A stretch of DNA of 64,000 bases, taken from assembly GCA_000002435.2 (NCBI GenBank), contig CM018792.1; one strand, 5' to 3'. The stretch is from Giardia intestinalis. Lineage: Eukaryota. Positions 1 to 53,786 of this stretch are shown one piece after another. Both the position numbers and the translations under genes were made by a program. How positions within the stretch are numbered: the stretch's first letter is position 1; each line of letters starts with the position of its first letter. The notes beneath the pieces are model-generated. The model had not been told where the DNA came from. It made no database searches and saw only the letters and a list, made by a program, of their open reading frames with translations.

Positions 1-3000
1 CCGCAAGATCGCCATGAGCAGGCACTTGTTCGACTTTCACGACCGCGCAGTCGCCAAGCACCGCGCAGAAAGGGCGCAGCAGGAGGCAGAGCGCCGAAGG
101 ACAGCGCTCCTCCAGTGCAAATCCGACGCGATAGCAGCTGGATACAACGAGTGGTACGACGCGCGGGTGTGCAAGGAGGAAGAGGAACACCTATCTAAGT
201 CAAAGCGCGACAGGTATGGCGGTAAACGGGCAGGCCTCTGGGAAGAGCATCTGATACTCAGCAACGCCTCTATTCGCGTTTCCTCAGTGGGCCCAGCAAG
301 GGCCCTTTCTGCTCCATATCAGCCAGCGTCTAATTGATGAAAAGTCTTCCTGCAAACCAAGTACTCTATTAAGTGGTTCGTTAGTGAATAGCACCTGTAC
401 CAAATAGAGAGTTGCATAACGAGCTCAGAGGTTTTCTTCCTCTGTTGAGCCCGTTGCATAGATGAAGTTGGTACGCCTCAATCAGATATCTGAAGTGCCT
501 CTTTATGAATGTACTCACAGATGCAACTAGAAGAGGTGCATCACACCTGACTCCATGTGTACAGACTTGACGCTATGCAAGATTACTTGACGGAAGTCTT
601 CAGGGACGCTAGTCATCGGTCTACACGCCAAGGATTAGGAGTCTACATAAGATGCTCTCGCTATACTCTTTTGTATGTTGAAAGGAGCTGATTTCCTAAA
701 ACACACTGATAAATATCAATAGCTTAAGCTTGAGGCCACAACTCCTCTTTGAACAACAGTCTATCGATGCTCAAGTATGGATTTCTAGAGTATTGATCAC
801 GATAACCAGGTCTTTGAGATTGTCTTAAATGTCCAACCTTTCTAAAGCGCAGTTTAAATGACTACTAGTTTCCATGGTTTGTAGGCCGTAGTATAGACTT
901 CGTTGAACTATTATACTTTTCCCATATCCCATAAACGTGCAGAAGGCTACTGTATTCTTGGAAGGGGTGATCTTTCATATATTTCTAAGCACTGAACCGT
1001 GGTTAGGATTGGTGTACAAGGTTATCAGACACACACGATGTCCATATTAAGACGCAGGACTTAAATGCTACAGGCGGCCTCAGAAAGAGCTCTCTGAGGG
1101 AACAAGAAGTGAGGCGACTAATGCACCGAAGATGCTGCGGGCCTCTGTCCACGGAGTGCAAACCCATTACTATGCAATTCGCTACCACAGGCTTCTGTCT
1201 GCGGCGACACAACTACTAGGTGACATCACACTCTGGAAGCTAGTGTGCGGGCTCACGTTGTAAGGTCGGCGGACCGGAGGATGCAGGAGCCACGGGGTAG
1301 TGACTGACCATCATGGCTTCTATAGGCTCTGCGGCTATTAGTACAGGGGCAGGGATGCTGCATCCTGGTGATTGGCCCAGAGCCGCACCATCCAATGGGC
1401 CGACGACCCTCATGTTGTTTCAATCTGAAGCGGCCTCCACTGCTGCCCCCGTACGAGTTGGAGAAGGGGTCGGCCCCATCGAATGCGGCAGAGAACAACA
1501 AGTCCCCAGTCTTCGGGCGAGGAAGATGGGTGATCTCGTCCAGGTGAAGCCGACTCCTCACCGTCCTCTGGGTCCTGCCTCTTCTACCGCCCTGGCACAA
1601 CATAGCTCGGTAGGGGGCGGCGTGTCTGCGCTACAGGACGCGTCGTCAAGAAAGAGTGGGCCTGGAGAGGCCCGACGGCCACCGCTGGGATAGGCCTCAG
1701 AAGCCCTTGGCTGCAGGATACGCTACTGCCAGGGTCAGTGCAGGCTATGGCTTTGAGGAAGCGCAGGACTGACGGGCGCTATCAGGAAACACCTGGCACG
1801 TTCTCGTGGAGAGGGGGACTCAGGCTTGGGGGCTTGGCAGTGTCGGGCCCGGGCTGGGTAGAGAGCTTGCTGTACCCGGAAGTGAAGACCCCAGCAAGCA
1901 GGAATAGTGGCCACAGCCAGTACAGCCGGCGGGTCGACCCGGGCCTCTTCAGCCGCGCTTGATGGAGCCCGACGTTGCGCCAGGCGACGGGACAGGGCAC
2001 CGGCCGTCTCTAGGGCATGCAGGAGGCGAGGCTTGTGAGCCCATGGGCGTCTGGCCTGCAAGCTGAGGCCACATCGGTGACGAGGCCCAGAGTGACGCAG
2101 CGTGGACGCTCTGTGGTGACGGGCCTGACAATGAGTGCAGCAAAGTTATGGGAATGGGCTCCGTCTGGGTCAGGACCTCAGAGTTCTCTTCGTCGTAAGG
2201 AAGAATAGGGCAGTGCGGTATAAGGGAGGCATCCGGCAAGATATGCTGGGAAACTGGCCCGTTGCGGTAAGTCACGGGCGCTGCCAAACACGGCGTCTCT
2301 TCTCTTAGACAGAAGACAGGCAGAATGGGTGACTGCGGAGGCTGCAGTGTCCGTGGTAGATCGCGGCATCGCAATGCGGCTGGGTCCGTGCCGGTGTGTC
2401 TGCCCGGACTCTAAGTGCGCTCTGAGGATCACCTGCTGATGGGCTGGAAGGCCCGAGAAGTGATGTGCTGCCCCTGTCATTGCGGGCAGCGCCCCGTGAC
2501 ACGCACTCGAGCCAGGGCCTCCTGGTGGCCAGAAGCAGAGCAGAGGCAGACGGCCGGTCGTGCATCCGTCCGGGCGGCTCACTGCATGTAGAGCGAAGAA
2601 GACCACTTGCGCCGCTCGGGTTATCGCTCAGCATCAAGTGCGGATGGAAGGCTGGGCCCGGCAACCAGGGCACCGACCTGTACGCTCCTGTCAGCCATCC
2701 CAGGCCGGCCAGAAGCCAGGCTCGACAGGCAGTGCAAAAGCCAGGGAAGCCAGCGTGATCATCGGGCCCGCGTTTGAATGCTAAAAAACTTGGGCGGCGA
2801 TGGCGACTGTCGTCTTCCTGGGAGGGCGCCTCTTCGCACAGGGTCAGCCGTCCTGGCCCTGCATGCTGGGTGCGCGGCTCGAGGGCGCGCTATGCTAGTT
2901 GAGGGCCTGCCAGGCGCTGCAGCCTACGAATAGCACGGACGGATGCAACGGGGTGTCCGAGCAGTGCACTGTCTTTGTCCCAGAGAGCTGTGGTTCTAAC

Positions 3001-6000
3001 CATGCGCCCTACACCAGCTCGGCATACCCCTGCTGCTTCCGCTGCTGGTCTGTCTGCCACTTGTTTATTATAGCGGGGGCGCATACGCTTGGGGTGTCGC
3101 CTAGGCACTGTAGTGGTCTTCTCTGACGGTGCGTGTATATTCACATGATGGCCGATGGGTGGAGCGGCTGCCTGATCTCCGAGCTCTCATTGCAACAAGG
3201 CGGGGCGTCGGCTGTCTACACGCCTCTAAGCGAGCCCGCGACCTCTGTGCAGATGCCTGCTCGCCGCGCTCCATAGTGACGGCTGTACACCCAGAAGGGG
3301 CTGCAGAATCCTCCGCTGTCCTTCGATGTGGACCACGGCTTGTGCACAGGCTAGCGACGGGGCCTGCACACTAGCTTCTATGGGCCCAGCCTGCCAGGCA
3401 CCTGGATCACAGTGCACGTCAAGACCGCACACTCGTTTGCATGCTCGCTGCTAATGTTGAACAGGACTGCGAGGGGTCTGTCTCTGGCCATCCTCGCCTT
3501 AGTACCTGGCCCTTGATGACACGCCTCAGTAGAGGATGGTGTCTTCTAAGTGCTCGGAAGACTATCCGTGCATGGCGGTTCCCGGAGAGTCGGTTCGCAC
3601 AGAAAGCGTAGATGTGCCCGGCGGGCTAGTGGGGTAAGGCTGGGGCTACAGAGACTAGCCATTAGTCCGGATTACAGCAGGGACACCTGTAGTGCCTCCT
3701 CGGCTCCTAAGCGTGGAAAGGCCGTAGAACTTGCAGATGAGTTGGAGGCTGCTTTTTGATTTTATGCATTTGCAGCAGAGCAGAGTTTACTGAAGGTCCA
3801 CTTATTCTAAATTCGAGGAGCCTCATCTCTTCCTCACACACGGTGAGATGATCGATTGTAGGGGTGTACTGTGCAAACCGGTGACAGTCAGCGTATCTAT
3901 TATCCAGACGGATACTGCCTGCGTCCTCCTGTGGCAGACCACCACCAGGGCCCCCAATCTACACATCTGTTCTGGCATCTGTCGGGCAATCATCACCTCC
4001 TGTCGAAGGATTGCTATACGTTACACATCTTGAGCCATCCATCGACCAGGTGGTGCCATAAGCTCTTGTCCCCTACTTGTCCACTCAATGCATACTCTGA
4101 GCGCCGCCAGTTGCACTCACGTCTGCACTACTCATCTGGATGCCCCCCACTCTTCAAGAGCACATGCCCGCAGCCGATGCTCCGTATTACAAGAGAAGTC
4201 AGCCGGATCACTGCGCTGTGCATAGCTCTCATAGGCGTGTTGCTATGCGCGCCCAGCCTTTCCACCCGTAGGCCGCCACGCGTTCACATGTGCGCCAGCG
4301 CCGCCGAGCTTTCGTGGTTTCGAGTGGCCCTGATGCATGGAGCGCTTGCGCACAAGTCCTTCCACCACTGACCCAGGCCGACCCCTCGCAAGATCCTTAG
4401 CGGAGTTGCATCCGAGATGTGTGTCTGCGTTGCTGTCCAGGTGCATGTGCCGGCCCTGGTGCTTCTCACAAGCTTGCGAGCATCGAGCTGGCCTCTACCG
4501 AACCGTATCAGAAGTCAGCACCAGGATGTGGTCCCCTCGGTTGGGCTCTGCAGGCTCCCAGAGCTACGCACCAAAGGGCCGTTCTTCTTTGCGCCGTGTA
4601 ACGTAGGGAGATGCACCGAGCTACTACGCCCTCTCCGTGTGGCGTGGTTTACGACGGGGGACGGGATCCCTGTGCTCATTGTCTATCTGCCCAGGGCCAG
4701 CCGCAGCCCGGGTTGAGGATGACAAGCGAAGATCTCCCAGCTCCTTGTCAGCGGGTGGGAGATCCCGCCACTCTAGTACCCACAACAAAGGGTGCCGATC
4801 ACTGGCAGAGGGACACGACACCCAGGCCCCGCTCCTTCCACTGATGGTACCTAATAAGAGACTCCTTTGTCGCCTGCACCAACAACCTCAGGCACCGTGG
4901 GTCAGAGTGCCTCCATAGTGGACAGCGGTAGCACTATGATGATCTGGGGTGATATGAGTCCTGGCTTACTGGCTCAGGAGGCAGCACGCTTTGGGTGGTT
5001 CTTCCCTCTTGTCCAGATCTGGGAGGGCTGGCTGCCTTCCGAGCCCCCTGGCACCTTGTCAGGTGATGGAGTGTCTTAAAGTATTCATTACAAAAGATCA
5101 GAAATAGCGCCATGCATTCCCAATAGATCAGAGGGTCTCACGAGCTACTCTATGCTGATTCACACCTTTCATGGACCCTAGCGACCACTGTAACCTTCTT
5201 TCGGGATCTTGCAAGGGACTGTCCTTGAGTGCGATTCCCCATGACAGCCGGGAGTCGCAGACATAATCCAAAGGGATGAGAGTACTACAGAGGCTGAGAG
5301 GAGAGTGCCGATGCACAGGGGTCCGCAGAGACCCGACTCGTACAGGGAAGGCGTGGAGGCTGGCTCTCCAGGGATGTAGAGCCACCAGGAAAGGAGCCGG
5401 CAGTGGGGCTGAGGGTCAGCAGAGGCACCCGAGCCGTCCTCTGATTGACCGCGAGGCAGCAGGCACATGGGGCGGCATCACCGCTTGTTTTTGGATTTTC
5501 TGCTTCCCTGCGCGTTGTGCAGGGGTCCGTAGTGGGTTGAGTATCACAGGCTACGCACAGCAACGCGTTTACTACCTAAGTACATCTACGCCTTCCCTCT
5601 GCAGATGAACCACCAGCAGAGGAAGCCCACAAGGCCTCCGACGACGACAATGACTGCGACAGAGATCCCCGCGATGGCACCGGTAGAAAGGCCGCTCTTG
5701 TTCGTGCTTCCGTCGGTACTGTCACCATCTTTTATGAGGTAGCAGAGGACGGAGCCACTACCAGCCGATGGAGGGGCGCAGCTAGCGCAGTTGGCGACGC
5801 CGGTGATGGATCCCCCGTCGCTCTTGTCGCATGCTATGCACTTTTCTTTGGACAGGTAGTACCCTGCAGCGCACACCGTGCACTTGGTGGCATCGTTCGC
5901 ATTGCACTCGGAGCACCCAGTGGCGCAGGGAACACACTTCTGAGTGTTACCGCCAGTCTTAGCATATCCAGCCTTGCACGTGTCGCACTGGTCCTGGCTG

Positions 6001-8424
6001 GTGCACGTCTTACATCCGGCCGAGCAAGTGGTGAGCGCGCCGTTATCCAGCTTGTACCCGTCGGCCGGAGTCTGACAAGCATCGCTCGCTTCTGCTGCGG
6101 CTAAGCAGACGCTCTTTCCGGGGAACTTGGTCGTCTCATAGCAGCCCCCGTTCATACGAAGAAGCCCGTTGGCGCATTTATTGCAAACACCACTTCCTTG
6201 AGTAGTGCACGTAATGGCCTTTCCGGCCGCCGCCGAGCAGACTCCGTTCTGCGGAAACTGGCCGGCGTCCTTGCACTTGGAGCAGTAGGCCGTGCCATTG
6301 ACCGTCAGCTCGCACTTCTCGCAGTTGTTAGCATTTGGCTCGCATCCTGGTTTGCACGTCCCCGTGTTGCCCTCTCCTTCGTAGCTGAGGGCCTTCTTAG
6401 GCTCGCAGCTCGTACACCCGTTGGAGTTCCCGTTCGCGCACGTCTTACACGAGGTATCGCACTTGGCACAGGCGGCTCCGCTCTTGTAATATCCGTCCTT
6501 GCAGGTATCACACTGTCCGTTCTCGTTGCACAGGAGGCAGTTCTCGACCTCGCACTTCTTGCAGGCCTTCTTGCCCCCCTCGTTGGTGCCCGCGTAGTAG
6601 CCTCCCAGATCTCCGCAGTTATCGATGCACTGGCCCGTGGGCGTGAGGGCCTTAGTGCCCTCGCACTCTGTGCACACCTCCTTGCTTGTCTTCGGCTCAC
6701 TGCATGTCTTGCAGCCGGGGGTGTTGCACTGGGGGTCGGATTTCTTCGTGCACCCGGTGCCCGCGTTGTCGGGAACGTAGCCCTCGACGCACTCACAAAC
6801 GCCAGAGGTCTTTTCCTCGTTGGAGTTCAAGGGGCAGCTTTCAACGCACCCCTTCTTGTTTGGCTGGATCTTCTTATTAGGCCCGCACGTCTTGCAAACC
6901 ACTCCGGTGGGGCCTTTCTCACAAGTGGCGCAGTCCACCGTCCCTCCGGAAGCGCAGGTGTTGCACTCCTTTGCTTCCTTATCAACGTAATGAGTTGCCG
7001 GGCAGCCGTTTGCGTCAACGCACGTGCCAGTTGTGGACTCGTCATCCTTCTTTAGGTACGGCTTGTCATCCTTGCAGGAGGTGCACTTCGCAGCCCCAGT
7101 CTTACAGGTCTTGCATGTCTCAGCGCACTTGCTGCATTTTTTACCGCCCGTTGTATCGACGAAGAACCCTTCAGTGCCGGTGCACTCCTGTTCCGTCACA
7201 CACGACGTCGCGCCCCCGTCCGTCTTAACAATCCTCGCGGTTTGCTGCGCATCAGGGCCGCACGCAGTACACTTAGCAACTCCATTAGCTTGGCTCGTCA
7301 GTGCAGACCCGTCACAGGTAGTGCACCCGGCCACGCCCGTGTATGTCTTATCGCCAAGCGTTATGCCCGTCGCGTCTCCGCACGGTATAACCGACTGGTG
7401 AGAGACATCTGCGCCCGGTGGCACGAAGTATCCTTGCGCGGCTTGTGTGCATTTTCCCTCAGAGGCTTGCGTGCACATGGTCTGTCCGGGCTGCTGGGCT
7501 GCTTCGTAACACCCGCCCTTGTACATGAAAGTCTGACCAGCGCACTGTCCACAGGTCTGATCGGCTGTATTGCCTCCGGAGCTATCTTTACACTTATCTG
7601 TTGCACCATCTTTGCCTACACATTTTCCATTGATAGGAACAGATCCTGCGTCACATTGAGAACAGTACAGCTTATCGCCAATCAGAACGTTACATGCGTC
7701 TGCTGCACAATTAGTGTTATCTGCGCATTGAACTTCCCGCACGTGCTCTGCTACTTTTTCTGCCCATGCAATCTGGATGGCTAGGCCCGCGAATATAAAA
7801 CTACCGAACATTAACCAATCTGATAAATTGATAGGAAAAGAATCGCGGTACGTTCAGCCAATCCGTGTGACTGACACACCGCGGAGTATGGTAGCCTGCT
7901 TGGCGATCAGTAATAAAACGGGATCCACTAGTCTTCTTGAATGTTGCTTCACCCCTCACAATCTAGACACAATGATGATCACCCGACCACTTGTGTGGCC
8001 CATTGTCTTGCAGCGCGGAGCCCTACAGTGGCCATCTTCTGAACGACGCCACCCTGCCATTCGCGGAGGGCCCCTCATCCTCCCTCGTTATAGACCGTGG
8101 CAAAAGAGACACAGCAGGCGGCTTGTCCATCTCCGTAAACATCCGAGAGGGCCCTGCCTGTCTGTGTGAGGAGGTTTACTCTTTCCACCGAGGGCGGTTT
8201 TCGACTACTTCCGGCGCATCAGTCGCGTCCGGGCGGTGGCGTGCCGCTGGGGCCTGCCTGCGGCGTGGTCCAGAAGTCTCACGGGTAAGCCTCGCTCAAT
8301 TCCCGGCCAGCCCGGAGGCGAAGGGTGGTCGTGGGTCGCAGTGATAGCCACAGCGGTGGCAAAGAGGGGTCCCCTCCACGTGTGGATCTGGGGTCTCGCG
8401 TTCCTCGGCTGTTCTGCGGGCATG
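1..8424. repeat. Left arm of a giant inverted repeat (palindrome), truncated at the window start. Mirror of ~11045..19468, with coordinates summing to 19469.
   Basis: Every six-frame ORF in 14..8420 has an exact or near-exact reverse-strand twin (e.g. 14..337+ vs 19132..19455-, 5586..7811- vs 11658..13883+, 8236..8420+ vs 11049..11233-). Nucleotide comparison at the inner edge shows identity decaying over 8415-8424 (catgtgcaca | caatcgg). Confidence 0.93.
5586..7811 (-). CDS. vsp: Variant-specific surface protein (VSP), 741 aa, left-arm copy
   Basis: Signal peptide MFGSFIFAGLAIQIAWA. Dozens of CXXC motifs and two GGCY motifs. C-terminal TM helix (GAIAGISVAVIVVVGGLVGFLCWWFI) followed by the invariant VSP tail CRGKA*. 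Giardia polyadenylation signal AGTAAAC lies 13 nt past the stop (5567..5573, minus strand). Confidence 0.95.
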   Translation of the reverse strand: MFGSFIFAGLAIQIAWAEKVAEHVREVQCADNTNCAADACNVLIGDKLYCSQCDAGSVPINGKCVGKDGATDKCKDSSGGNTADQTCGQCAGQTFMYKGGCYEAAQQPGQTMCTQASEGKCTQAAQGYFVPPGADVSHQSVIPCGDATGITLGDKTYTGVAGCTTCDGSALTSQANGVAKCTACGPDAQQTARIVKTDGGATSCVTEQECTGTEGFFVDTTGGKKCSKCAETCKTCKTGAAKCTSCKDDKPYLKKDDESTTGTCVDANGCPATHYVDKEAKECNTCASGGTVDCATCEKGPTGVVCKTCGPNKKIQPNKKGCVESCPLNSNEEKTSGVCECVEGYVPDNAGTGCTKKSDPQCNTPGCKTCSEPKTSKEVCTECEGTKALTPTGQCIDNCGDLGGYYAGTNEGGKKACKKCEVENCLLCNENGQCDTCKDGYYKSGAACAKCDTSCKTCANGNSNGCTSCEPKKALSYEGEGNTGTCKPGCEPNANNCEKCELTVNGTAYCSKCKDAGQFPQNGVCSAAAGKAITCTTQGSGVCNKCANGLLRMNGGCYETTKFPGKSVCLAAAEASDACQTPADGYKLDNGALTTCSAGCKTCTSQDQCDTCKAGYAKTGGNTQKCVPCATGCSECNANDATKCTVCAAGYYLSKEKCIACDKSDGGSITGVANCASCAPPSAGSGSVLCYLIKDGDSTDGSTNKSGLSTGAIAGISVAVIVVVGGLVGFLCWWFICRGKA

Positions 8425-9183
8425 TGCACACAATCGGACCTGAGGCGAAGGAGAGCCCGCGAGGACCCGATCCGCATTACGAACGCAAGATCGTACCTCC
8501 GGACCCCAAACAGCAAGCCGTGAGTCTCTACTTGGGAGACCACTCCGAAGACGCTTGCCCTCTGGCAGGACACACATGCTGGCTCTGTGGCCTACCGTGT
8601 GAGAGCGCCAACAACTAACCGAGCACCTGAGAGAAGCAAACGATGACAGACACAGAGTACCGGGCGACGACAAGCTGATCCTTCCGGCCCAGTACCGAAC
8701 CAGACAGAGCTCGCCATGCTCATCCACCAAGGTGCACCCATGATCGCGAGCATCGAGCAGGCAGGGACTGGGGTCGCTCTTCCCGCTATCAGGGGCCTAG
8801 ACGCCCTGGTGGGAAGCCCCAGAGGACTCAAGCAACACAGTAGAGCAGGCCCAGAGCAAGTCGGACCCAGATCCAGAGAGGGCGAGGCGCCGGATAGCAA
8901 ACAGGGTGAACAACGCGCTGAGCTTCGGGGCAGTTGCTAAGGCTCTCCGCGCCCTTGATGACACGCCCATGGTAGACATCAAGTCGGAGAAGGCCAAGGC
9001 TGCCCTCAGCGCGCTACACCCGTGCGTCCTCCCCGAAGGCTACGTTGGCCTTGACTACCCTCTATCGATGAACTCGACGGGGCTGGAGTGGCAACCGAGG
9101 AGGAAATGAGAAAGGCCCTGTTGGGACTCTCAACAAGAAGGCCTCGGGCGGTCCAGCTCAGGTGATGAAGCAGAACGACGACT

Positions 9184-9900
9184 GTGAAATGCCTCACGCA
9201 GGCGTACAACGAGCTGACCACCCACCCCGAAGGAGTCCGACGGATACCCCCGATCGCGATAGGCGAGACGGTCACGAACACCTTCCACCGCGTCCTGCTG
9301 AAGCGGCTGGTCAGGCATGCCAACTACCTCTCATGCGAACAGATCGCCTTCAAGCAGAACGCATACGCGGTAGGTGTGAGGAGGGCCCACGAGCTCATCA
9401 GCAGGCGGGGGTGCACCCCGTCTCCCTCGACATAAAGAACGCCCTCAACTCCCTCCCGAGGGCAGAGGTCGTCAGAGCCCTGAACGAGGCGGGCGTCCCG
9501 AAGGTCCTAGTCGACTACATTAGGAACTTCCTCGACCTGAGGCACAGCCGGGACGTGAAGTGCGAGGTCTGGGGCGTCCCCCAGGGCGACCCGCTCAGCA
9601 CTTTCCTCTTCTGCATGGCCATCGAGCGCCTCCTGAGACGCCTCAAGGAGAGGGGCATCACCTTCCTTGCCTAGCGGACGACATCGTGGCGCTCCACGAC
9701 GAGGCCTACCCGGCAGGCACGATAATACAGCAGGCCACGGTGGAGGCCGCCGCCATGGACCTGACGATCAGGAGCGACAAGTGCAAGTCCACCATGGCGG
9801 GCGAGGAGGTGACTTTCCTCAACCACCCGGTGTCCCCCACCCCTGCAAGCCTTGCCCCAAAGGCCATCGCAGGTGCTGAGACTGCCCCCATAACCATCCA
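9184..9900 (+). pseudogene. Reverse transcriptase domain of the dead retroelement, with frameshifts including a 1-bp deletion inside the YADD box
   Basis: gcc tag cgg acg aca at 9668..9682 would read FLA-YADD-IVAL if one C were restored (tac gcg gac gac). The RT motifs are spread over frames 1, 0 and 2. Confidence 0.8.
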
Positions 9901-10310
9901 CTAGAAGCTCATCTTGATGTCACTCTGTGTGGTCCCGATGGTGAACTACGCCCCCCTGGTCGAGATAACATCGGACAAGGCGGACTACGAGGAGCTCGAC
10001 AGACGTCGCACAAGGCTTCAGCAAAATAACCAACAGAAGCTGCGATCGCCTGGTCGACTTCCTGGCGTACCCGAAGGAGAAGGGCGGTCTGGGCCTGCTC
10101 ATGCCGGGGCTCTGCCACGACGAGCTGCGGAGGGCATGGGCCTCCCCGGACGTCAACAAGGGGACCAGGGACCCGGTGGAGCTGTCGGTGGGCGGCCAGG
10201 CACTGCAGGGGAAGGGGACCTACTTCAACCGCCTCCTCACGCGCACACATCAGCTTCCGGACAGAGCGGCGGCGTGCTGACCGAGGAGGAAAGGGCCCTG
10301 AAGGAGAGAG

Positions 10311-10802
10311 ATGGCTCGATCATGGCGCAGACAAGAGGCACCTGCCCAGGCTGCCACACGGCGAGGACCCTCGACCACGAGGCACGACATGATCGTCGCG
10401 TGCCTGTACCTCCGCGTCTCGGGGAAGTTCAACGCAGAGCTGGAGGTCAAGACCCACAGCCACCTCAGCGACCAGAACCAGAAGCCCGACATCTGGCTCG
10501 TCGACAAGTGCAAGGCAGTGGACGTGCGTGTCATCCAGCCCCGCCAGATGGATGCCTACTACAACGAGAAGGTCAAGAAGTACAGGGACGGGACGCTCCC
10601 GATCATCTACGGGACAGACGGCTCCCTCCACCCCAGTCCAAGGGGCACCTCGAGGAGCTCCACGTGGACCTCTATCCGGGCTGCCTTCGCCATCGCCCAC
10701 ATGGCTGCAAAGGCGAACGAGCACCCGACGAAGCTGATCAGACGCGACCGGGCCGAAAGCCTGGCCACCCAGAGCGACCGCCTCCTGTCATCCTACTTCT
10801 GA
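10311..10802 (+). pseudogene. REL-endonuclease-like C-terminal domain fragment of the dead retroelement. It is preceded by CCHC zinc-finger remnants in another frame.
   Basis: KPDIWLVD...VDVRV...EKVKKY resembles the PD-(D/E)XK motif of R2/NeSL/GilM-type elements. A Cys/His cluster lies upstream in frame 2 (9914..). Confidence 0.6.
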
Positions 10803-11657
10803 CAACCGAATGAGCCCATCCCTGGGACCTGTCGACAACGATCGAGGGGGGGGCAAAGACTGGACACACAACCGAGTTGAATCCCAACCAGTGGAGAGAG
10901 CCCCGCTAGCTGCTGCTGATCTACATGGACAGTATCGAAAATGACAACAAAGACCAGAGCTTCACCCACCATGAAGGGAGAACAAGGAGAGGCACCCTCA
11001 GTAGAACAGTGAGTCCGTAAGAAAACCTCGAAAAGATCGATGTGCACGCCCGCGGAACAGCCGAGGAACGCGAGACCCCAGATCCACACGTGGAGGGGAC
11101 CCCTCTTTGCCACCGCTGTGGCTATCACTGCGACCCACGACCACCCTTCGCCTCCGGGCTGGCCGGGAATTGAGCGAGGCTTACCCGTGAGACTTCTGGA
11201 CCACGCCGCAGGCAGGCCCCAGCGGCACGCCACCGCCCGGACGCGACTGATGCGCCGGAAGTAGTCGAAAACCGCCCTCGGTGGAAAGAGTAAACCTCCT
11301 CACACAGACAGGCAGGGCCCTCTCGGATGTTTACGGAGATGGACAAGCCGCCTGCTGTGTCTCTTTTGCCACGGTCTATAACGAGGGAGGATGAGGGGCC
11401 CTCCGCGAATGGCAGGGTGGCGTCGTTCAGAAGATGGCCACTGTAGGGCTCCGCGCTGCAAGACAATGGGCCACACAAGTGGTCGGGTGATCATCATTGT
11501 GTCTAGATTGTGAGGGGTGAAGCAACATTCAAGAAGACTAGTGGATCCCGTTTTATTACTGATCGCCAAGCAGGCTACCATACTCCGCGGTGTGTCAGTC
11601 ACACGGATTGGCTGAACGTACCGCGATTCTTTTCCTATCAATTTATCAGATTGGTTA

Positions 11658-13883
11658 ATGTTCGGTAGTTTTATATTCGCGGGCCTAGCCATCCAGATTG
11701 CATGGGCAGAAAAAGTAGCAGAGCACGTGCGGGAAGTTCAATGCGCAGATAACACTAATTGTGCAGCAGACGCATGTAACGTTCTGATTGGCGATAAGCT
11801 GTACTGTTCTCAATGTGACGCAGGATCTGTTCCTATCAATGGAAAATGTGTAGGCAAAGATGGTGCAACAGATAAGTGTAAAGATAGCTCCGGAGGCAAT
11901 ACAGCCGATCAGACCTGTGGACAGTGCGCTGGTCAGACTTTCATGTACAAGGGCGGGTGTTACGAAGCAGCCCAGCAGCCCGGACAGACCATGTGCACGC
12001 AAGCCTCTGAGGGAAAATGCACACAAGCCGCGCAAGGATACTTCGTGCCACCGGGCGCAGATGTCTCTCACCAGTCGGTTATACCGTGCGGAGACGCGAC
12101 GGGCATAACGCTTGGCGATAAGACATACACGGGCGTGGCCGGGTGCACTACCTGTGACGGGTCTGCACTGACGAGCCAAGCTAATGGAGTTGCTAAGTGT
12201 ACTGCGTGCGGCCCTGATGCGCAGCAAACCGCGAGGATTGTTAAGACGGACGGGGGCGCGACGTCGTGTGTGACGGAACAGGAGTGCACCGGCACTGAAG
12301 GGTTCTTCGTCGATACAACGGGCGGTAAAAAATGCAGCAAGTGCGCTGAGACATGCAAGACCTGTAAGACTGGGGCTGCGAAGTGCACCTCCTGCAAGGA
12401 TGACAAGCCGTACCTAAAGAAGGATGACGAGTCCACAACTGGCACGTGCGTTGACGCAAACGGCTGCCCGGCAACTCATTACGTTGATAAGGAAGCAAAG
12501 GAGTGCAACACCTGCGCTTCCGGAGGGACGGTGGACTGCGCCACTTGTGAGAAAGGCCCCACCGGAGTGGTTTGCAAGACGTGCGGGCCTAATAAGAAGA
12601 TCCAGCCAAACAAGAAGGGGTGCGTTGAAAGCTGCCCCTTGAACTCCAACGAGGAAAAGACCTCTGGCGTTTGTGAGTGCGTCGAGGGCTACGTTCCCGA
12701 CAACGCGGGCACCGGGTGCACGAAGAAATCCGACCCCCAGTGCAACACCCCCGGCTGCAAGACATGCAGTGAGCCGAAGACAAGCAAGGAGGTGTGCACA
12801 GAGTGCGAGGGCACTAAGGCCCTCACGCCCACGGGCCAGTGCATCGATAACTGCGGAGATCTGGGAGGCTACTACGCGGGCACCAACGAGGGGGGCAAGA
12901 AGGCCTGCAAGAAGTGCGAGGTCGAGAACTGCCTCCTGTGCAACGAGAACGGACAGTGTGATACCTGCAAGGACGGATATTACAAGAGCGGAGCCGCCTG
13001 TGCCAAGTGCGATACCTCGTGTAAGACGTGCGCGAACGGGAACTCCAACGGGTGTACGAGCTGCGAGCCTAAGAAGGCCCTCAGCTACGAAGGAGAGGGC
13101 AACACGGGGACGTGCAAACCAGGATGCGAGCCAAATGCTAACAACTGCGAGAAGTGCGAGCTGACGGTCAATGGCACGGCCTACTGCTCCAAGTGCAAGG
13201 ACGCCGGCCAGTTTCCGCAGAACGGAGTCTGCTCGGCGGCGGCCGGAAAGGCCATTACGTGCACTACTCAAGGAAGTGGTGTTTGCAATAAATGCGCCAA
13301 CGGGCTTCTTCGTATGAACGGGGGCTGCTATGAGACGACCAAGTTCCCCGGAAAGAGCGTCTGCTTAGCCGCAGCAGAAGCGAGCGATGCTTGTCAGACT
13401 CCGGCCGACGGGTACAAGCTGGATAACGGCGCGCTCACCACTTGCTCGGCCGGATGTAAGACGTGCACCAGCCAGGACCAGTGCGACACGTGCAAGGCTG
13501 GATATGCTAAGACTGGCGGTAACACTCAGAAGTGTGTTCCCTGCGCCACTGGGTGCTCCGAGTGCAATGCGAACGATGCCACCAAGTGCACGGTGTGCGC
13601 TGCAGGGTACTACCTGTCCAAAGAAAAGTGCATAGCATGCGACAAGAGCGACGGGGGATCCATCACCGGCGTCGCCAACTGCGCTAGCTGCGCCCCTCCA
13701 TCGGCTGGTAGTGGCTCCGTCCTCTGCTACCTCATAAAAGATGGTGACAGTACCGACGGAAGCACGAACAAGAGCGGCCTTTCTACCGGTGCCATCGCGG
13801 GGATCTCTGTCGCAGTCATTGTCGTCGTCGGAGGCCTTGTGGGCTTCCTCTGCTGGTGGTTCATCTGCAGAGGGAAGGCGTAG
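11658..13883 (+). CDS. vsp: Variant-specific surface protein (VSP), 741 aa, right-arm copy. Protein-identical to 5586..7811 and head-to-head with it.
   Basis: Same 741-aa translation as the left copy. AT-rich initiator context caatttatcagattggttaATG. AGTAAAC polyadenylation signal at 13896..13902. Confidence 0.95.
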   Translation: MFGSFIFAGLAIQIAWAEKVAEHVREVQCADNTNCAADACNVLIGDKLYCSQCDAGSVPINGKCVGKDGATDKCKDSSGGNTADQTCGQCAGQTFMYKGGCYEAAQQPGQTMCTQASEGKCTQAAQGYFVPPGADVSHQSVIPCGDATGITLGDKTYTGVAGCTTCDGSALTSQANGVAKCTACGPDAQQTARIVKTDGGATSCVTEQECTGTEGFFVDTTGGKKCSKCAETCKTCKTGAAKCTSCKDDKPYLKKDDESTTGTCVDANGCPATHYVDKEAKECNTCASGGTVDCATCEKGPTGVVCKTCGPNKKIQPNKKGCVESCPLNSNEEKTSGVCECVEGYVPDNAGTGCTKKSDPQCNTPGCKTCSEPKTSKEVCTECEGTKALTPTGQCIDNCGDLGGYYAGTNEGGKKACKKCEVENCLLCNENGQCDTCKDGYYKSGAACAKCDTSCKTCANGNSNGCTSCEPKKALSYEGEGNTGTCKPGCEPNANNCEKCELTVNGTAYCSKCKDAGQFPQNGVCSAAAGKAITCTTQGSGVCNKCANGLLRMNGGCYETTKFPGKSVCLAAAEASDACQTPADGYKLDNGALTTCSAGCKTCTSQDQCDTCKAGYAKTGGNTQKCVPCATGCSECNANDATKCTVCAAGYYLSKEKCIACDKSDGGSITGVANCASCAPPSAGSGSVLCYLIKDGDSTDGSTNKSGLSTGAIAGISVAVIVVVGGLVGFLCWWFICRGKA

Positions 13884-13895
13884 ATGTACTTAGGT

Positions 13896-13902
13896 AGTAA
13901 AC
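13896..13902 (+). terminator. Giardia polyadenylation signal AGTAAAC (AGTRAAY consensus) for the right VSP copy. The mirror on the minus strand is at 5567..5573.
   Basis: Exact AGTAAAC 13 nt downstream of the TAG stop. The same motif class follows RPL13A (around 25691) and overlaps the EF-2 stop (38002..38008). Confidence 0.7.
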
Positions 13903-16900
13903 GCGTTGCTGTGCGTAGCCTGTGATACTCAACCCACTACGGACCCCTGCACAACGCGCAGGGAAGCAGAAAATCCAAAAACAAGCGGTGATGCCGCCCC
14001 ATGTGCCTGCTGCCTCGCGGTCAATCAGAGGACGGCTCGGGTGCCTCTGCTGACCCTCAGCCCCACTGCCGGCTCCTTTCCTGGTGGCTCTACATCCCTG
14101 GAGAGCCAGCCTCCACGCCTTCCCTGTACGAGTCGGGTCTCTGCGGACCCCCGTGCATCGGCGCTCTCCTCTCAGCCTCTGTAGTACTCTCATCCCTTTG
14201 GATTATGTCTGCGACTCCCGGCTGTCATGGGGAATCGCACTCAAGGACAGTCCCTTGCAAGATCCCGAAAGAAGGTTACAGTGGTCGCTAGGGTCCATGA
14301 AAGGTGTGAATCAGCATAGAGTAGCTCGTGAGACCCTCTGATCTATTGGGAATGCATGGCGCTATTTCTGATCTTTTGTAATGAATACTTTAAGACACTC
14401 CATCACCTGACAAGGTGCCAGGGGGCTCGGAAGGCAGCCAGCCCTCCCAGATCTGGACAAGAGGGAAGAACCACCCAAAGCGTGCTGCCTCCTGAGCCAG
14501 TAAGCCAGGACTCATATCACCCCAGATCATCATAGTGCTACCGCTGTCCACTATGGAGGCACTCTGACCCACGGTGCCTGAGGTTGTTGGTGCAGGCGAC
14601 AAAGGAGTCTCTTATTAGGTACCATCAGTGGAAGGAGCGGGGCCTGGGTGTCGTGTCCCTCTGCCAGTGATCGGCACCCTTTGTTGTGGGTACTAGAGTG
14701 GCGGGATCTCCCACCCGCTGACAAGGAGCTGGGAGATCTTCGCTTGTCATCCTCAACCCGGGCTGCGGCTGGCCCTGGGCAGATAGACAATGAGCACAGG
14801 GATCCCGTCCCCCGTCGTAAACCACGCCACACGGAGAGGGCGTAGTAGCTCGGTGCATCTCCCTACGTTACACGGCGCAAAGAAGAACGGCCCTTTGGTG
14901 CGTAGCTCTGGGAGCCTGCAGAGCCCAACCGAGGGGACCACATCCTGGTGCTGACTTCTGATACGGTTCGGTAGAGGCCAGCTCGATGCTCGCAAGCTTG
15001 TGAGAAGCACCAGGGCCGGCACATGCACCTGGACAGCAACGCAGACACACATCTCGGATGCAACTCCGCTAAGGATCTTGCGAGGGGTCGGCCTGGGTCA
15101 GTGGTGGAAGGACTTGTGCGCAAGCGCTCCATGCATCAGGGCCACTCGAAACCACGAAAGCTCGGCGGCGCTGGCGCACATGTGAACGCGTGGCGGCCTA
15201 CGGGTGGAAAGGCTGGGCGCGCATAGCAACACGCCTATGAGAGCTATGCACAGCGCAGTGATCCGGCTGACTTCTCTTGTAATACGGAGCATCGGCTGCG
15301 GGCATGTGCTCTTGAAGAGTGGGGGGCATCCAGATGAGTAGTGCAGACGTGAGTGCAACTGGCGGCGCTCAGAGTATGCATTGAGTGGACAAGTAGGGGA
15401 CAAGAGCTTATGGCACCACCTGGTCGATGGATGGCTCAAGATGTGTAACGTATAGCAATCCTTCGACAGGAGGTGATGATTGCCCGACAGATGCCAGAAC
15501 AGATGTGTAGATTGGGGGCCCTGGTGGTGGTCTGCCACAGGAGGACGCAGGCAGTATCCGTCTGGATAATAGATACGCTGACTGTCACCGGTTTGCACAG
15601 TACACCCCTACAATCGATCATCTCACCGTGTGTGAGGAAGAGATGAGGCTCCTCGAATTTAGAATAAGTGGACCTTCAGTAAACTCTGCTCTGCTGCAAA
15701 TGCATAAAATCAAAAAGCAGCCTCCAACTCATCTGCAAGTTCTACGGCCTTTCCACGCTTAGGAGCCGAGGAGGCACTACAGGTGTCCCTGCTGTAATCC
15801 GGACTAATGGCTAGTCTCTGTAGCCCCAGCCTTACCCCACTAGCCCGCCGGGCACATCTACGCTTTCTGTGCGAACCGACTCTCCGGGAACCGCCATGCA
15901 CGGATAGTCTTCCGAGCACTTAGAAGACACCATCCTCTACTGAGGCGTGTCATCAAGGGCCAGGTACTAAGGCGAGGATGGCCAGAGACAGACCCCTCGC
16001 AGTCCTGTTCAACATTAGCAGCGAGCATGCAAACGAGTGTGCGGTCTTGACGTGCACTGTGATCCAGGTGCCTGGCAGGCTGGGCCCATAGAAGCTAGTG
16101 TGCAGGCCCCGTCGCTAGCCTGTACACAAGCCGTGGTCCACATCGAAGGACAGCGGAGGATTCTGCAGCCCCTTCTGGGTGTACAGCCGTCACTATGGAG
16201 CGCGGCGAGCAGGCATCTGCACAGAGGTCGCGGGCTCGCTTAGAGGCGTGTAGACAGCCGACGCCCCGCCTTGTTGCAATGAGAGCTCGGAGATCAGGCA
16301 GCCGCTCCACCCATCGGCCATCATGTGAATATACACGCACCGTCAGAGAAGACCACTACAGTGCCTAGGCGACACCCCAAGCGTATGCGCCCCCGCTATA
16401 ATAAACAAGTGGCAGACAGACCAGCAGCGGAAGCAGCAGGGGTATGCCGAGCTGGTGTAGGGCGCATGGTTAGAACCACAGCTCTCTGGGACAAAGACAG
16501 TGCACTGCTCGGACACCCCGTTGCATCCGTCCGTGCTATTCGTAGGCTGCAGCGCCTGGCAGGCCCTCAACTAGCATAGCGCGCCCTCGAGCCGCGCACC
16601 CAGCATGCAGGGCCAGGACGGCTGACCCTATGCGAAGAGGCGCCCTCCCAGGAAGACGACAGTCGCCATCGCCGCCCAAGTTTTTTAGCATTCAAACGCG
16701 GGCCCGATGATCACGCTGGCTTCCCTGGCTTTTGCACTGCCTGTCGAGCCTGGCTTCTGGCCGGCCTGGGATGGCTGACAGGAGCGTACAGGTCGGTGCC
16801 CTGGTTGCCGGGCCCAGCCTTCCATCCGCACTTGATGCTGAGCGATAACCCGAGCGGCGCAAGTGGTCTTCTTCGCTCTACATGCAGTGAGCCGCCCGGA

Positions 16901-19131
16901 CGGATGCACGACCGGCCGTCTGCCTCTGCTCTGCTTCTGGCCACCAGGAGGCCCTGGCTCGAGTGCGTGTCACGGGGCGCTGCCCGCAATGACAGGGGCA
17001 GCACATCACTTCTCGGGCCTTCCAGCCCATCAGCAGGTGATCCTCAGAGCGCACTTAGAGTCCGGGCAGACACACCGGCACGGACCCAGCCGCATTGCGA
17101 TGCCGCGATCTACCACGGACACTGCAGCCTCCGCAGTCACCCATTCTGCCTGTCTTCTGTCTAAGAGAAGAGACGCCGTGTTTGGCAGCGCCCGTGACTT
17201 ACCGCAACGGGCCAGTTTCCCAGCATATCTTGCCGGATGCCTCCCTTATACCGCACTGCCCTATTCTTCCTTACGACGAAGAGAACTCTGAGGTCCTGAC
17301 CCAGACGGAGCCCATTCCCATAACTTTGCTGCACTCATTGTCAGGCCCGTCACCACAGAGCGTCCACGCTGCGTCACTCTGGGCCTCGTCACCGATGTGG
17401 CCTCAGCTTGCAGGCCAGACGCCCATGGGCTCACAAGCCTCGCCTCCTGCATGCCCTAGAGACGGCCGGTGCCCTGTCCCGTCGCCTGGCGCAACGTCGG
17501 GCTCCATCAAGCGCGGCTGAAGAGGCCCGGGTCGACCCGCCGGCTGTACTGGCTGTGGCCACTATTCCTGCTTGCTGGGGTCTTCACTTCCGGGTACAGC
17601 AAGCTCTCTACCCAGCCCGGGCCCGACACTGCCAAGCCCCCAAGCCTGAGTCCCCCTCTCCACGAGAACGTGCCAGGTGTTTCCTGATAGCGCCCGTCAG
17701 TCCTGCGCTTCCTCAAAGCCATAGCCTGCACTGACCCTGGCAGTAGCGTATCCTGCAGCCAAGGGCTTCTGAGGCCTATCCCAGCGGTGGCCGTCGGGCC
17801 TCTCCAGGCCCACTCTTTCTTGACGACGCGTCCTGTAGCGCAGACACGCCGCCCCCTACCGAGCTATGTTGTGCCAGGGCGGTAGAAGAGGCAGGACCCA
17901 GAGGACGGTGAGGAGTCGGCTTCACCTGGACGAGATCACCCATCTTCCTCGCCCGAAGACTGGGGACTTGTTGTTCTCTGCCGCATTCGATGGGGCCGAC
18001 CCCTTCTCCAACTCGTACGGGGGCAGCAGTGGAGGCCGCTTCAGATTGAAACAACATGAGGGTCGTCGGCCCATTGGATGGTGCGGCTCTGGGCCAATCA
18101 CCAGGATGCAGCATCCCTGCCCCTGTACTAATAGCCGCAGAGCCTATAGAAGCCATGATGGTCAGTCACTACCCCGTGGCTCCTGCATCCTCCGGTCCGC
18201 CGACCTTACAACGTGAGCCCGCACACTAGCTTCCAGAGTGTGATGTCACCTAGTAGTTGTGTCGCCGCAGACAGAAGCCTGTGGTAGCGAATTGCATAGT
18301 AATGGGTTTGCACTCCGTGGACAGAGGCCCGCAGCATCTTCGGTGCATTAGTCGCCTCACTTCTTGTTCCCTCAGAGAGCTCTTTCTGAGGCCGCCTGTA
18401 GCATTTAAGTCCTGCGTCTTAATATGGACATCGTGTGTGTCTGATAACCTTGTACACCAATCCTAACCACGGTTCAGTGCTTAGAAATATATGAAAGATC
18501 ACCCCTTCCAAGAATACAGTAGCCTTCTGCACGTTTATGGGATATGGGAAAAGTATAATAGTTCAACGAAGTCTATACTACGGCCTACAAACCATGGAAA
18601 CTAGTAGTCATTTAAACTGCGCTTTAGAAAGGTTGGACATTTAAGACAATCTCAAAGACCTGGTTATCGTGATCAATACTCTAGAAATCCATACTTGAGC
18701 ATCGATAGACTGTTGTTCAAAGAGGAGTTGTGGCCTCAAGCTTAAGCTATTGATATTTATCAGTGTGTTTTAGGAAATCAGCTCCTTTCAACATACAAAA
18801 GAGTATAGCGAGAGCATCTTATGTAGACTCCTAATCCTTGGCGTGTAGACCGATGACTAGCGTCCCTGAAGACTTCCGTCAAGTAATCTTGCATAGCGTC
18901 AAGTCTGTACACATGGAGTCAGGTGTGATGCACCTCTTCTAGTTGCATCTGTGAGTACATTCATAAAGAGGCACTTCAGATATCTGATTGAGGCGTACCA
19001 ACTTCATCTATGCAACGGGCTCAACAGAGGAAGAAAACCTCTGAGCTCGTTATGCAACTCTCTATTTGGTACAGGTGCTATTCACTAACGAACCACTTAA
19101 TAGAGTACTTGGTTTGCAGGAAGACTTTTCA

Positions 19132-19650
19132 TCAATTAGACGCTGGCTGATATGGAGCAGAAAGGGCCCTTGCTGGGCCCACTGAGGAAACGCGAATAGA
19201 GGCGTTGCTGAGTATCAGATGCTCTTCCCAGAGGCCTGCCCGTTTACCGCCATACCTGTCGCGCTTTGACTTAGATAGGTGTTCCTCTTCCTCCTTGCAC
19301 ACCCGCGCGTCGTACCACTCGTTGTATCCAGCTGCTATCGCGTCGGATTTGCACTGGAGGAGCGCTGTCCTTCGGCGCTCTGCCTCCTGCTGCGCCCTTT
19401 CTGCGCGGTGCTTGGCGACTGCGCGGTCGTGAAAGTCGAACAAGTGCCTGCTCATGGCGATCTTGCGGGCCGCTCTGTACACCTCGCCGGCCTTTTCCGA
19501 ACGCCGCCAGAGGGCCTGGCTTCGGCGGTCCGCCGCTTCCTCGACAGAGCGCGTCCTCCGGAGGGGCTGCGCTAGCCGCGCGACAACGTGGCCGGGCAGC
19601 GGCCTCCTGAAGGGCTGGCCAGACGGGACCGTGAAGTAGCTGAACGCCAT
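19132..19650 (-). CDS. Hypothetical protein (172 aa). The C-terminal 108 codons lie inside the inverted repeat and are duplicated at 14..337 (+).
   Basis: ATG-initiated ORF with a charged coiled-coil-like stretch (AERAQQEAERRR). It is GC-rich like the repeat arms. No recognisable domain. Confidence 0.35.
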   Translation of the reverse strand: MAFSYFTVPSGQPFRRPLPGHVVARLAQPLRRTRSVEEAADRRSQALWRRSEKAGEVYRAARKIAMSRHLFDFHDRAVAKHRAERAQQEAERRRTALLQCKSDAIAAGYNEWYDARVCKEEEEHLSKSKRDRYGGKRAGLWEEHLILSNASIRVSSVGPARALSAPYQPASN

Positions 19651-19854: not shown

Positions 19855-20595
19855 TCACTTTGTGAAGGTCTTAGAAAAGTATTCCTTCTTCTTTTCGGGA
19901 TCAGGAATAATGAAGTCGTTCTTCTCAGGAGTCCAGCCGCACGGGATGACACCGCCGGTTTTATCAGCGTACTGGAAGGCCTGAATCATACGCATAGCTT
20001 CTTCGACAGAGCGACCCACAGGAAAATCGTTAATTGTAACATGGCGTACAATTCCTTTATCGGAGACGATAAACATGGCACGCAGAGCAAGACCCATTTC
20101 CTCAACGAGTATGCCAAAATCACGTGCCATCTTATGATTCGTGTCGGCGAATAGATCACATTTGCAGGGCCCGATCCCCCCGTCTGTCTTATTCTGAAGG
20201 CACCAAGCGTGGTGGCTATAAACAGTGTCTGTCGAGCCAATGATAATCTCAGTGTTATACTTCTTCTTCAGTTGCTCAGCCATAGAGGAAAAATGAATGA
20301 TCTCAGAGGGACAGACAAAGGTGAAGTCGGCTGGATAGAAGAAGATGATCAGATATTTGCCCTTGTAATCTGCAAGCTTACGCTTAGTAAACTTGAGTTC
20401 AGGGGTAAGGACCTCCACTTCAAAGTCGGGACAAGGGGTGCCTGGAATGGGAACGGAACTGGTTGTCTTGAGCTGCATGCAGACTTCTGTGTCGCCAAAC
20501 TTCTCACACTTATCAGGTATGCACGTATTCTTATTCACGGTCAGCGTACAAGCAGCCGCAAAGGCAACCGAGATAAGACATATCAGCAGTAGCAT
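19855..20595 (-). CDS. Typical 2-Cys peroxiredoxin (thioredoxin peroxidase) with an N-terminal signal peptide
   Basis: FFYPADFTFVCPSEI peroxidatic-Cys motif and VIPCGW resolving-Cys motif. A hydrophobic N-terminus MLLLICLISVAFAAA is predicted. The ORF runs in frame up to 20739, but that 48-aa Arg-rich extension is probably not translated. Confidence 0.9.
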   Translation of the reverse strand: MLLLICLISVAFAAACTLTVNKNTCIPDKCEKFGDTEVCMQLKTTSSVPIPGTPCPDFEVEVLTPELKFTKRKLADYKGKYLIIFFYPADFTFVCPSEIIHFSSMAEQLKKKYNTEIIIGSTDTVYSHHAWCLQNKTDGGIGPCKCDLFADTNHKMARDFGILVEEMGLALRAMFIVSDKGIVRHVTINDFPVGRSVEEAMRMIQAFQYADKTGGVIPCGWTPEKNDFIIPDPEKKKEYFSKTFTK

Positions 20596-20772
20596 TTTTA
20601 TTGGGCCTTTTTCGTGTAAATTACTTCCAGCTTCATTCTTTAACACGATACTGCATCTGCGCCTTCGTCTCCCCCTCCTCTCACAATAGTGCCCCTTCCT
20701 GCATAATGCTAACTGCTTTGCAAGAGCCTGTAGTGTCACATATATCTTAGAGGTATATGCTTAAAATATAAC

Positions 20773-53615: not shown

Positions 53616-53714
53616 TTTAAAATTATTTTTGCAGCCGGATTCCGGGGTCGGCACAGACCCTACCCCTCCCCTGCTACATGCGTCTCCTGCGCAGGGGGAC
53701 CCAAGGAAGAAGTG

Positions 53715-53786
53715 AGCCCACACCGGGACTCGAACCCAGATCACTAGCTCCGGAGGCTAGCATGCTTTCCATTGCACTATGCGAGC
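53715..53786 (-). tRNA. tRNA-Arg (anticodon CCG)
   Basis: The minus-strand sequence GCTCGCA-TA-GTGC-AATGGAAA-GCAT-G-CTAGC-CTCCGGA-GCTAG-TGAT-CTGGG-TTCGAGT-CCCGG-TGTGGGC-T folds as a 72-nt cloverleaf. It has U8, A14, GG in the D-loop, U33, a purine at 37, G53-C61, TTCGAGT T-loop and A58. The anticodon arm AGCCTCCGGAGCT is identical to human tRNA-Arg-CCG. Confidence 0.8.

Follow-up and report, generated by a model that had tools for sequence, protein, structure and literature searches.

Why does the remnant of a dead retrotransposon lie exactly at the axis of a palindrome that carries two identical surface-antigen genes? This question was raised by a stretch of 64,000 nucleotides of Giardia intestinalis DNA (called the window here), which belongs to chromosome 4 of Giardia WB and contains the VSP gene pair GL50803_00111933/00111936. 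The palindrome consisted of two arms (1-8424 and 11045-19468) and a spacer of 2620 nt (8425-11044). A base-by-base count of arm against arm gave six mismatches (left-arm positions 2839, 3345, 5306, 5317, 8415, and 8422), which corresponded to 99.93% identity. None of them was located inside the VSP open reading frame (ORF), against ~1.6 expected, a difference that is not statistically informative. The left arm reached position 1 of the window, and the visible arm length is a lower bound.

The best joint explanation is that the spacer, together with the adjoining ~250 nt of either arm, very probably represents one degenerate copy of GilD, a dead family of Giardia retrotransposons, the terminal repeats of which would have nucleated the palindrome. 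A preliminary description of this DNA had reported a dead element without long terminal repeats (non-LTR), of a Giardia-specific family, at the axis of a head-to-head VSP palindrome. This was confirmed by a match to Pfam RVT_1, by matches to R2 proteins, and by close relatives that came from Giardia only. The element had also been assigned to the unique spacer, which was partly right: the spacer holds its interior, but its terminal repeats reach ~250 nt into both arms. The features of the palindrome were as follows.

1..8424, no strand: left palindrome arm, found by inverted-repeat detection; one VSP gene and ~5.5 kb without long ORFs; clipped by the window edge.
5586..7811, minus strand: VSP gene, 741 aa, C-terminal CRGKA; left member of the head-to-head pair (GL50803_00111933 or 00111936).
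8173..8424, plus strand: left terminal inverted repeat, the innermost part of the left arm; outer terminus GTTTACTC; homologous to both flanks of four other copies (L001-L004).
8425..11044, plus strand: spacer, the internal part of a dead non-LTR retrotransposon of GilD/Genie-2 type (N-terminal region, reverse transcriptase, CCHC, restriction-like endonuclease, 3' untranslated region).
11045..11296, minus strand: right terminal inverted repeat, the innermost part of the right arm; same alignments.
11045..19468, no strand: right palindrome arm, found by inverted-repeat detection.
11658..13883, plus strand: VSP gene, 741 aa, the same as the left copy; right member of the pair.

The start codons of the two VSP genes were 3846 nt apart, and each gene began ~360 nt outward of the adjacent terminal repeat.

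The element and its inverted ends

The reverse transcriptase (RT) of the element was read from three plus-strand frames. Its coding remnants, all on the plus strand, were located as follows.

9181..9800, plus strand: RT domain remnant (Pfam RVT_1).
9241-9267, plus strand: RT motif 1, RIPPIAIGE.
9420-9455, plus strand: RT motif A, VSLDIKNALNSL.
9576-9611, plus strand: RT motif B, VPQGDPLSTFLF.
9663-9694, plus strand: RT motif C, FLA(Y)ADDIVAL.
10343-10378, plus strand: CCHC motif remnant, CPGCHTARTLDH.
10482-10532, plus strand: restriction-like endonuclease segment KPDI...D...VDV, KPDIWLVDKCKAVDVRV; the domain continues to the stop codon.
10800-10802, plus strand: stop codon of the ORF.
10803..11044, plus strand: 3' untranslated part of the element; homology to other copies continues to ~11011-11032.

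The preliminary description had named an RT profile search as one test of its reading. Pfam RVT_1 matched the repaired translation with E=4.6e-22 and the unrepaired ORF 9162-9674 with E=2.3e-10, and this match was far beyond chance. RVT_1 was the only significant Pfam match of both the repaired translation and the family consensus, and no APE endonuclease domain was found among the Pfam results. The RT motifs, the CCHC-like cluster, and the segment resembling a restriction-like endonuclease were all present where they had been placed. The CCHC pattern (C-x2-C-x7-H-x3-C), RHD, and KPDI..D..VD(V/I)GV aligned with the endonuclease domain of R2Bm (8gh6) and with P0008, a Giardia RT/endonuclease protein with intact motifs.

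The element is a fossil and enzymatically inert. In the YADD box, the Tyr codon had lost one nucleotide at 9673/9674 (TAC-GCG to TA-GCG), in agreement with the single-nucleotide deletion noticed earlier at about 9675. Three or more frameshifts had been claimed, and this number was exceeded: the reading frame changed at least eight times, and a TAG stood in frame at 9902-9904. The window copy also had private deletions of 17, 21, 22, 38, and 17 nt, and the 38-nt deletion at ~10377 removed the final Cys of the CCHC motif.

Copies of the element were compared at six loci, namely four in DH (assemblage A2; L001-L004), one on a metagenome scaffold (L008), and one in GS_B (assemblage B; L010); the other WB pairs labeled psiRT stood outside this comparison. 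According to blastn, the DH copies aligned with the window from 8398-8424 (L004 from 8234) to ~11011-11032 at 85-87% identity, which was about the whole spacer. Inverted repeats flanked all five copies that were complete at both ends (six loci in total), with the following extents.

L002: ~205 nt, 98% identity across 170 nt.
L003: 119 nt, 87%.
L001: 55 nt, 84%.
L004: at least 890 nt, up to both contig ends.
L010: 431 nt at 98%, plus a 35-nt segment at 83%.
L008: 5' side cut within the element; the scaffold ends inside the right repeat.

An alignment of both flanks indicated that the inner ~200 nt of the repeats were homologous, on both sides, among the four DH copies and the window. Only the right repeat of L010 matched the core of the window in blastn. 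The outer terminus GTTTACTCC was common to L002 (left and right) and L003 (right), each time beside unrelated DNA. Copy L002 was located among single-copy genes, where its repeats stood without a VSP gene and without a longer palindrome. Because the core was homologous between copies while the flanking DNA was unrelated, the ~200-250-nt inverted ends are part of the element itself. The element thus spans ~8173-11296, or ~3.1 kb, and extends beyond the 2.6-kb spacer. Outside the core the arms were locus-specific, ranging from 0 to >8 kb, and beyond the core, the conserved VSP 3' end was all that the window arms had in common with the flanking DNA of the other copies. No target-site duplications were seen around L002, which has the core repeats only. 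A further locus (L009), with 66% nucleotide identity and beside a RING-finger gene, added little, as did L008.

The copies in L004 (assemblage A2) and L010 (assemblage B) were both located between tail-to-tail VSP pairs. Their VSP fragments ended in CRGKA* and faced the element, whereas the pair in the window was head-to-head. The association of the element with a palindrome axis was therefore not limited to head-to-head pairs, and it was observed with either VSP orientation and in three assemblages. In L004, the two sides were 86% identical in the core repeat and 95%, 97%, and then 99% identical farther out; in L010, it was 83% in the core against 98% outside. Because the core repeat was more diverged than the outer arm, the outer arm in these two loci is younger than the element's own repeats.

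Both arms of the window contained a ~22-nt segment that was missing from most other copies, so one side had evidently been copied onto the other. The copies of the element differed from one another by 6-12%. The YADD deletion was common to the window, L001, and L002, and the box was intact in L003 and L004. A 53-nt deletion was common to the window and L002, and the remaining indels displayed conflicting (mosaic) sharing among copies. A six-copy consensus still required at least four frameshifts. Since inactivating frameshifts were common to several copies, the copies multiplied or exchanged sequence after inactivation.

The tail-to-tail palindrome of L004 held a further GilD 3'-end fragment, inverted and accompanied by part of a terminal repeat, at 306-371 and 461-572 (mirrored at 4565-4630 and ~4200-4310), between the VSP gene and the central element. 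This hints at nested or repeated palindrome formation. A similar inverted 3'-untranslated-region fragment was found in L001 at 8863-8936.

Family of the element

A search of 5.8 billion proteins found 13 relatives, 12 of which came from Giardia; the only other one was a beetle protein with a weak RT match (E=5.8e-9). One group of relatives shared 61-84% identity with the window copy, and its members were themselves frameshifted. The second group shared 35-46% identity, and several of its members had an intact YADD box that was read through; these presumably represented other Giardia families. The closest solved structures were R2 proteins (8gh6 and 9nl2; E~1e-7), and both the RT and the endonuclease domain aligned with them. 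The frames of the six-copy consensus were joined by hand into an ORF of 822 aa. This consensus matched RVT_1 with E=1.2e-24 and was 43% identical to P0008 from motif A through the endonuclease.

These results showed an R2-like element with a single ORF that comprised RT, CCHC, and a C-terminal restriction-like endonuclease. The RT fingers and palm of arthropod and vertebrate R2 elements aligned with the window element, as did their C-terminal CCHC and PD-(D/E)xK endonuclease. However, the relationship was distant; R2 elements are without terminal inverted repeats, and the window element was without an rDNA target. A possible degenerate zinc finger of C2H2 type was observed in the N-terminal part of the element at ~8575-8650 (frames 3 and 2). 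It was split by a frameshift in the window copy (HTCWLCGLPCES...LTEHLREANDDRH) and read as CWLCGLPCESAKQLTEHLREANDDRH in the consensus, in keeping with R2-like elements.

The name GilD was reportedly given to the family by Arkhipova and Morrison in 2001. Burke et al. reportedly called the GilD-type family Genie 2 in 2002, and all Genie 2 copies reportedly had inverted repeats of up to 172 bp. GilD has been described as a dead family that adjoins VSP genes in non-telomeric, gene-poor regions (PMC2861651). The window element was assigned to this family because it is dead, internal, VSP-adjacent, and flanked by inverted repeats. The window copy and six related copies were all frameshifted, as in a family with only dead copies, and the window locus was non-telomeric, gene-poor, and next to VSP genes. 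Inverted repeats were present in the window copy and in the five copies complete at both ends, with a homologous core of ~200 nt. GilD/Genie 2 and the window copy also had in common that they were specific to Giardia, carried frameshifts and deletions, and shared the single-ORF architecture. The window copy differed from GilD in arms extended to >8.4 kb and in its private deletions; otherwise nothing essential was different.

GilM/Genie 1 and GilT/Genie 1A had the same domain order and motifs as the window element. GilM and GilT form subtelomeric tandem arrays (~5.5 kb) in which the ORFs are intact (Xu 2020, PMC7000408). Unlike these, the window copy was internal and dead, with an interior of ~2.6 kb and inverted repeats at its flanks; it had neither an intact ORF nor a place in a subtelomeric head-to-tail array. 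Membership in GilM or GilT was rejected, given the destroyed ORF, the single copy in 64 kb, the housekeeping surroundings, and the 35-46% identity. The contrast with the telomeric GilM and GilT that was drawn in the preliminary description was to be expected, since GilD was already known to be dead and VSP-adjacent (PMC2861651). An LTR or Penelope-like element was rejected as well: integrase, protease, RNase H, and GIY-YIG domains were absent, and the flanking repeats were inverted, not direct. The non-LTR class proposed earlier therefore held.

When JGI metagenome contigs were scanned with P0001, no relatives appeared, and exact-protein look-ups of the window VSP and of the spacer ORF 10311-10802 matched no record. 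One ENA metagenome contig encoded P0003 (331 aa; 5 member sequences), an apparently uninterrupted ORF in which just the C-terminal half of a GilD-like protein was present, with thumb, CCHC, and endonuclease. P0003 shared 72% identity with the window copy and reads like an intact version of the relic that is frameshifted in L010 (assemblage B). It may be a truncated copy that has decayed less, or a remnant that is conserved.

Origin of the palindrome

The preliminary description had offered two origins, and the comparative data favored the second, in which the element seeded the inverted duplication. We infer the following course. A GilD-type element with inverted ends of ~200 nt adjoined a VSP gene; this anatomy was observed. 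Its inverted ends would then have nucleated a large palindrome by duplicating the flank in inverted orientation. One possible route starts with a break next to the element: the DNA would be resected, the two terminal repeats would anneal within one strand, and the fold-back would prime synthesis. The other possible route is an equivalent template switch or a gene conversion tract spreading outward from the repeats. By either route, the flank with its neighboring VSP gene would be copied in inverted orientation, and the interior of the element would be left as a unique loop. Arm-to-arm gene conversion, or a recent origin, would keep the arms 99.93% identical. The locus-specific outer arms, the VSP orientation that varied by locus, and the older core in L004 and L010 all pointed to seeding.

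Nucleation at short inverted repeats, following a break close by, is known to give palindromes in Tetrahymena rDNA and in palindromic amplification in yeast and mammals. As in the window, a short inverted repeat and a unique spacer form the center of a much larger, almost perfect palindrome, in which the spacer stays behind as the loop. Human Y palindromes have homogenized arms, and the window arms were likewise ~99.9% identical, far above what the apparent age of the central element would give. In Giardia, neither a break site nor amplification nor a dicentric intermediate is known to have been documented.

The other origin offered started from an older VSP palindrome, into which a retroelement inserted or by which it was captured. 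The position exactly at the axis would fit this, and so would the general adjacency of GilD copies to VSP genes, which could mean an insertion preference. This origin was contradicted by the repeats that the element carries. The innermost ~250 nt of both arms were homologous to the flanking inverted repeats of other copies, and L002 had those repeats between single-copy genes, with neither a VSP gene nor a further palindrome. An insertion would not bring matching inverted ends, and the arms outside the core were unrelated between loci. An earlier palindrome as the landing site is thus very improbable. Another explanation is that the inverted duplication was made at retrotransposition, when integration duplicated the target flank, so that arms and element would be of the same age. 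Every copy complete at both ends had inverted repeats, which the integration chemistry of the family could favor, and continuous arm-to-arm gene conversion could hide an old age. However, arms with 99.93% identity over 8.4 kb stood against copies that were 6-12% apart and had inactivating frameshifts in common, and in L004 and L010 a core of 83-86% identity stood against outer arms of 95-99%. The core repeat was also homologous between copies and was therefore not target DNA. We consider a duplication coupled to integration improbable.

It is also possible, although rather doubtful, that VSP, GilD, and VSP were copied together, as one segmental cassette, from a palindrome formed once elsewhere. 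The psiRT pairs of WB carry VSPs of 740, 741, and 747 aa (Xu 2020, PMC7000408), and the intergenic regions of 111933/6 and 119706/7 have been called 'very similar' (bioRxiv 10.1101/2022.03.07.483299). The common frameshifts also imply spread at the DNA level or in trans. On the other hand, the arms beyond the core shared only the conserved VSP 3' end among the compared copies, and the VSP orientation varied between loci. Such copying is compatible with seeding as the original event and is possible for the WB psiRT pairs. Near-identical arms of kilobase length, one of which reached the window edge, could even suggest an assembly artifact, such as a fold-back chimera of a long-read assembly. The same pair and spacing were present in the Sanger assembly (Adam et al. 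2010, PMC2996952; 3847) and in the PacBio assembly (Xu 2020, PMC7000408), the spacer was a real 2.6-kb element and not an adapter, and smaller versions of the architecture were present in other isolates that had been assembled independently (L004 and L010). The chance of an artifact is practically negligible, because three independent assemblies agreed and the arms differed at six positions.

Several points weigh against seeding by a GilD element. The core repeats of the window were as similar as the remaining arm, except for two mismatches at the inner edge, so the window itself displayed no age step. The label GilD/Genie 2 was reached by way of defining features and exclusion. The seeding mechanism is inferred from anatomy, and the outer arm ends were not visible, the left arm being clipped by the window. 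In WB, RT remnants were recorded in four of seven head-to-head pairs and in none of 12 tail-to-tail pairs (Xu 2020, PMC7000408). Because of these counts, GilD cannot be shown to be the basis of all inverted VSP pairs. Three WB psiRT pairs had VSPs of similar lengths (the 740, 741, and 747 aa given above), and some WB palindromes may have arisen by copying from another, not independently.

The published pairs and the surroundings of the locus

The locus and its RT remnant had been annotated already, and the element does not stand out within its family, which was already known as dead. Table 2 of Xu, Jex and Svard (2020, PMC7000408) lists the pair on chromosome 4 as 111933/111936, <- ->, 741 aa, 3846 bp, psiRT. 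The S4 table of a 2022 preprint records the same pair as 'Pseudogene; Two retrotransposon relics; 3,846', and the preprint noted that retrotransposon remnants were frequent between head-to-head pairs (bioRxiv 10.1101/2022.03.07.483299). Table 5 of Adam et al. (2010, PMC2996952), based on the Sanger assembly, contains vsp162 with a spacing of 3847; the intervening DNA was called non-coding there, and the pairs were considered 'an interesting, but cryptic observation'. The window locus is one of these identical inverted VSP pairs of WB (vsp162 by its spacing; 111933/111936). RT relics had been noted for the head-to-head pairs of WB only, whereas the copies in DH (L004) and GS_B (L010) lay between tail-to-tail pairs. 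Earlier papers noted RT relics between head-to-head pairs without explaining the connection. The residual value of the present analysis lies in the anatomy, as the annotation of the locus is not new. What is new is the evidence that the element's own inverted ends define the core of the palindrome, and that relics were also found between tail-to-tail pairs and in other assemblages.

We speculated, with low confidence, that GilD terminal repeats are general nucleation sites of the identical inverted VSP pairs of Giardia, tail-to-tail pairs included, and that the palindromes could yield hairpin RNA. The tail-to-tail spacers of WB were ~1.4-2.2 kb, with a median of ~1.7 kb (inter-ORF distance minus twice the 3' divergence, from Table 5 of Adam et al. 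2010), and the L010 spacer, which held a 5'-truncated GilD relic, was 1640 nt. In the published tables, the WB tail-to-tail spacers are described only as 'VSP like region'. If the speculation is true, these spacers would be unrecognized 5'-truncated GilD relics like that of L010, and a fossil retroelement would be the structural cause of the 'cryptic' duplication pattern in an antigenic-variation gene family. Hairpin RNA from the palindromes could then feed an RNAi-like control of VSP expression. The anatomy gives a concrete hypothesis for the duplication of surface-antigen genes in Giardia, which can be tested by an alignment of the 19 WB pairs.

The first gene past the right arm was the following.

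19855-20739, minus strand: peroxiredoxin gene (AhpC/TSA and 1-Cys Prx C-terminal domain).

Two short-read contigs, independent of each other and taken from public runs (L005 and L006), were 100% and 99.985% identical to the window, and both started at 19954. This position is within the 3' end of the peroxiredoxin gene, 486 nt past the visible end of the right arm. Because both contigs broke there, the true outer end of the right arm is probably near 19954-19985, inside the peroxiredoxin gene, and the arms are probably ~8.9 kb long. It also suggests that the 3' part of the peroxiredoxin gene is duplicated, with a second piece directly before position 1 of the window. The ~5.5 kb of each arm outside the VSP gene (1-5585 and its mirror 13884-19468) contained no ORF of >166 aa, and a search of the arms for further GilD, VSP, or RT remnants and for tandem repeats found none. 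An AT-rich dip (GC 0.40) was present at 501-1000 and 18501-19000.

Downstream of the right arm, there were 44 kb of housekeeping genes. The window contained no telomere repeats and no rRNA or rDNA, and the GilD-type element was present in a single copy within its 64 kb. The sole Rfam match in the window was a tRNA-Arg(CCG) gene at 53714-53786 on the minus strand. It overlapped the start of a mechanically listed ORF (51684-53744), the GTG start of which is probably wrong.

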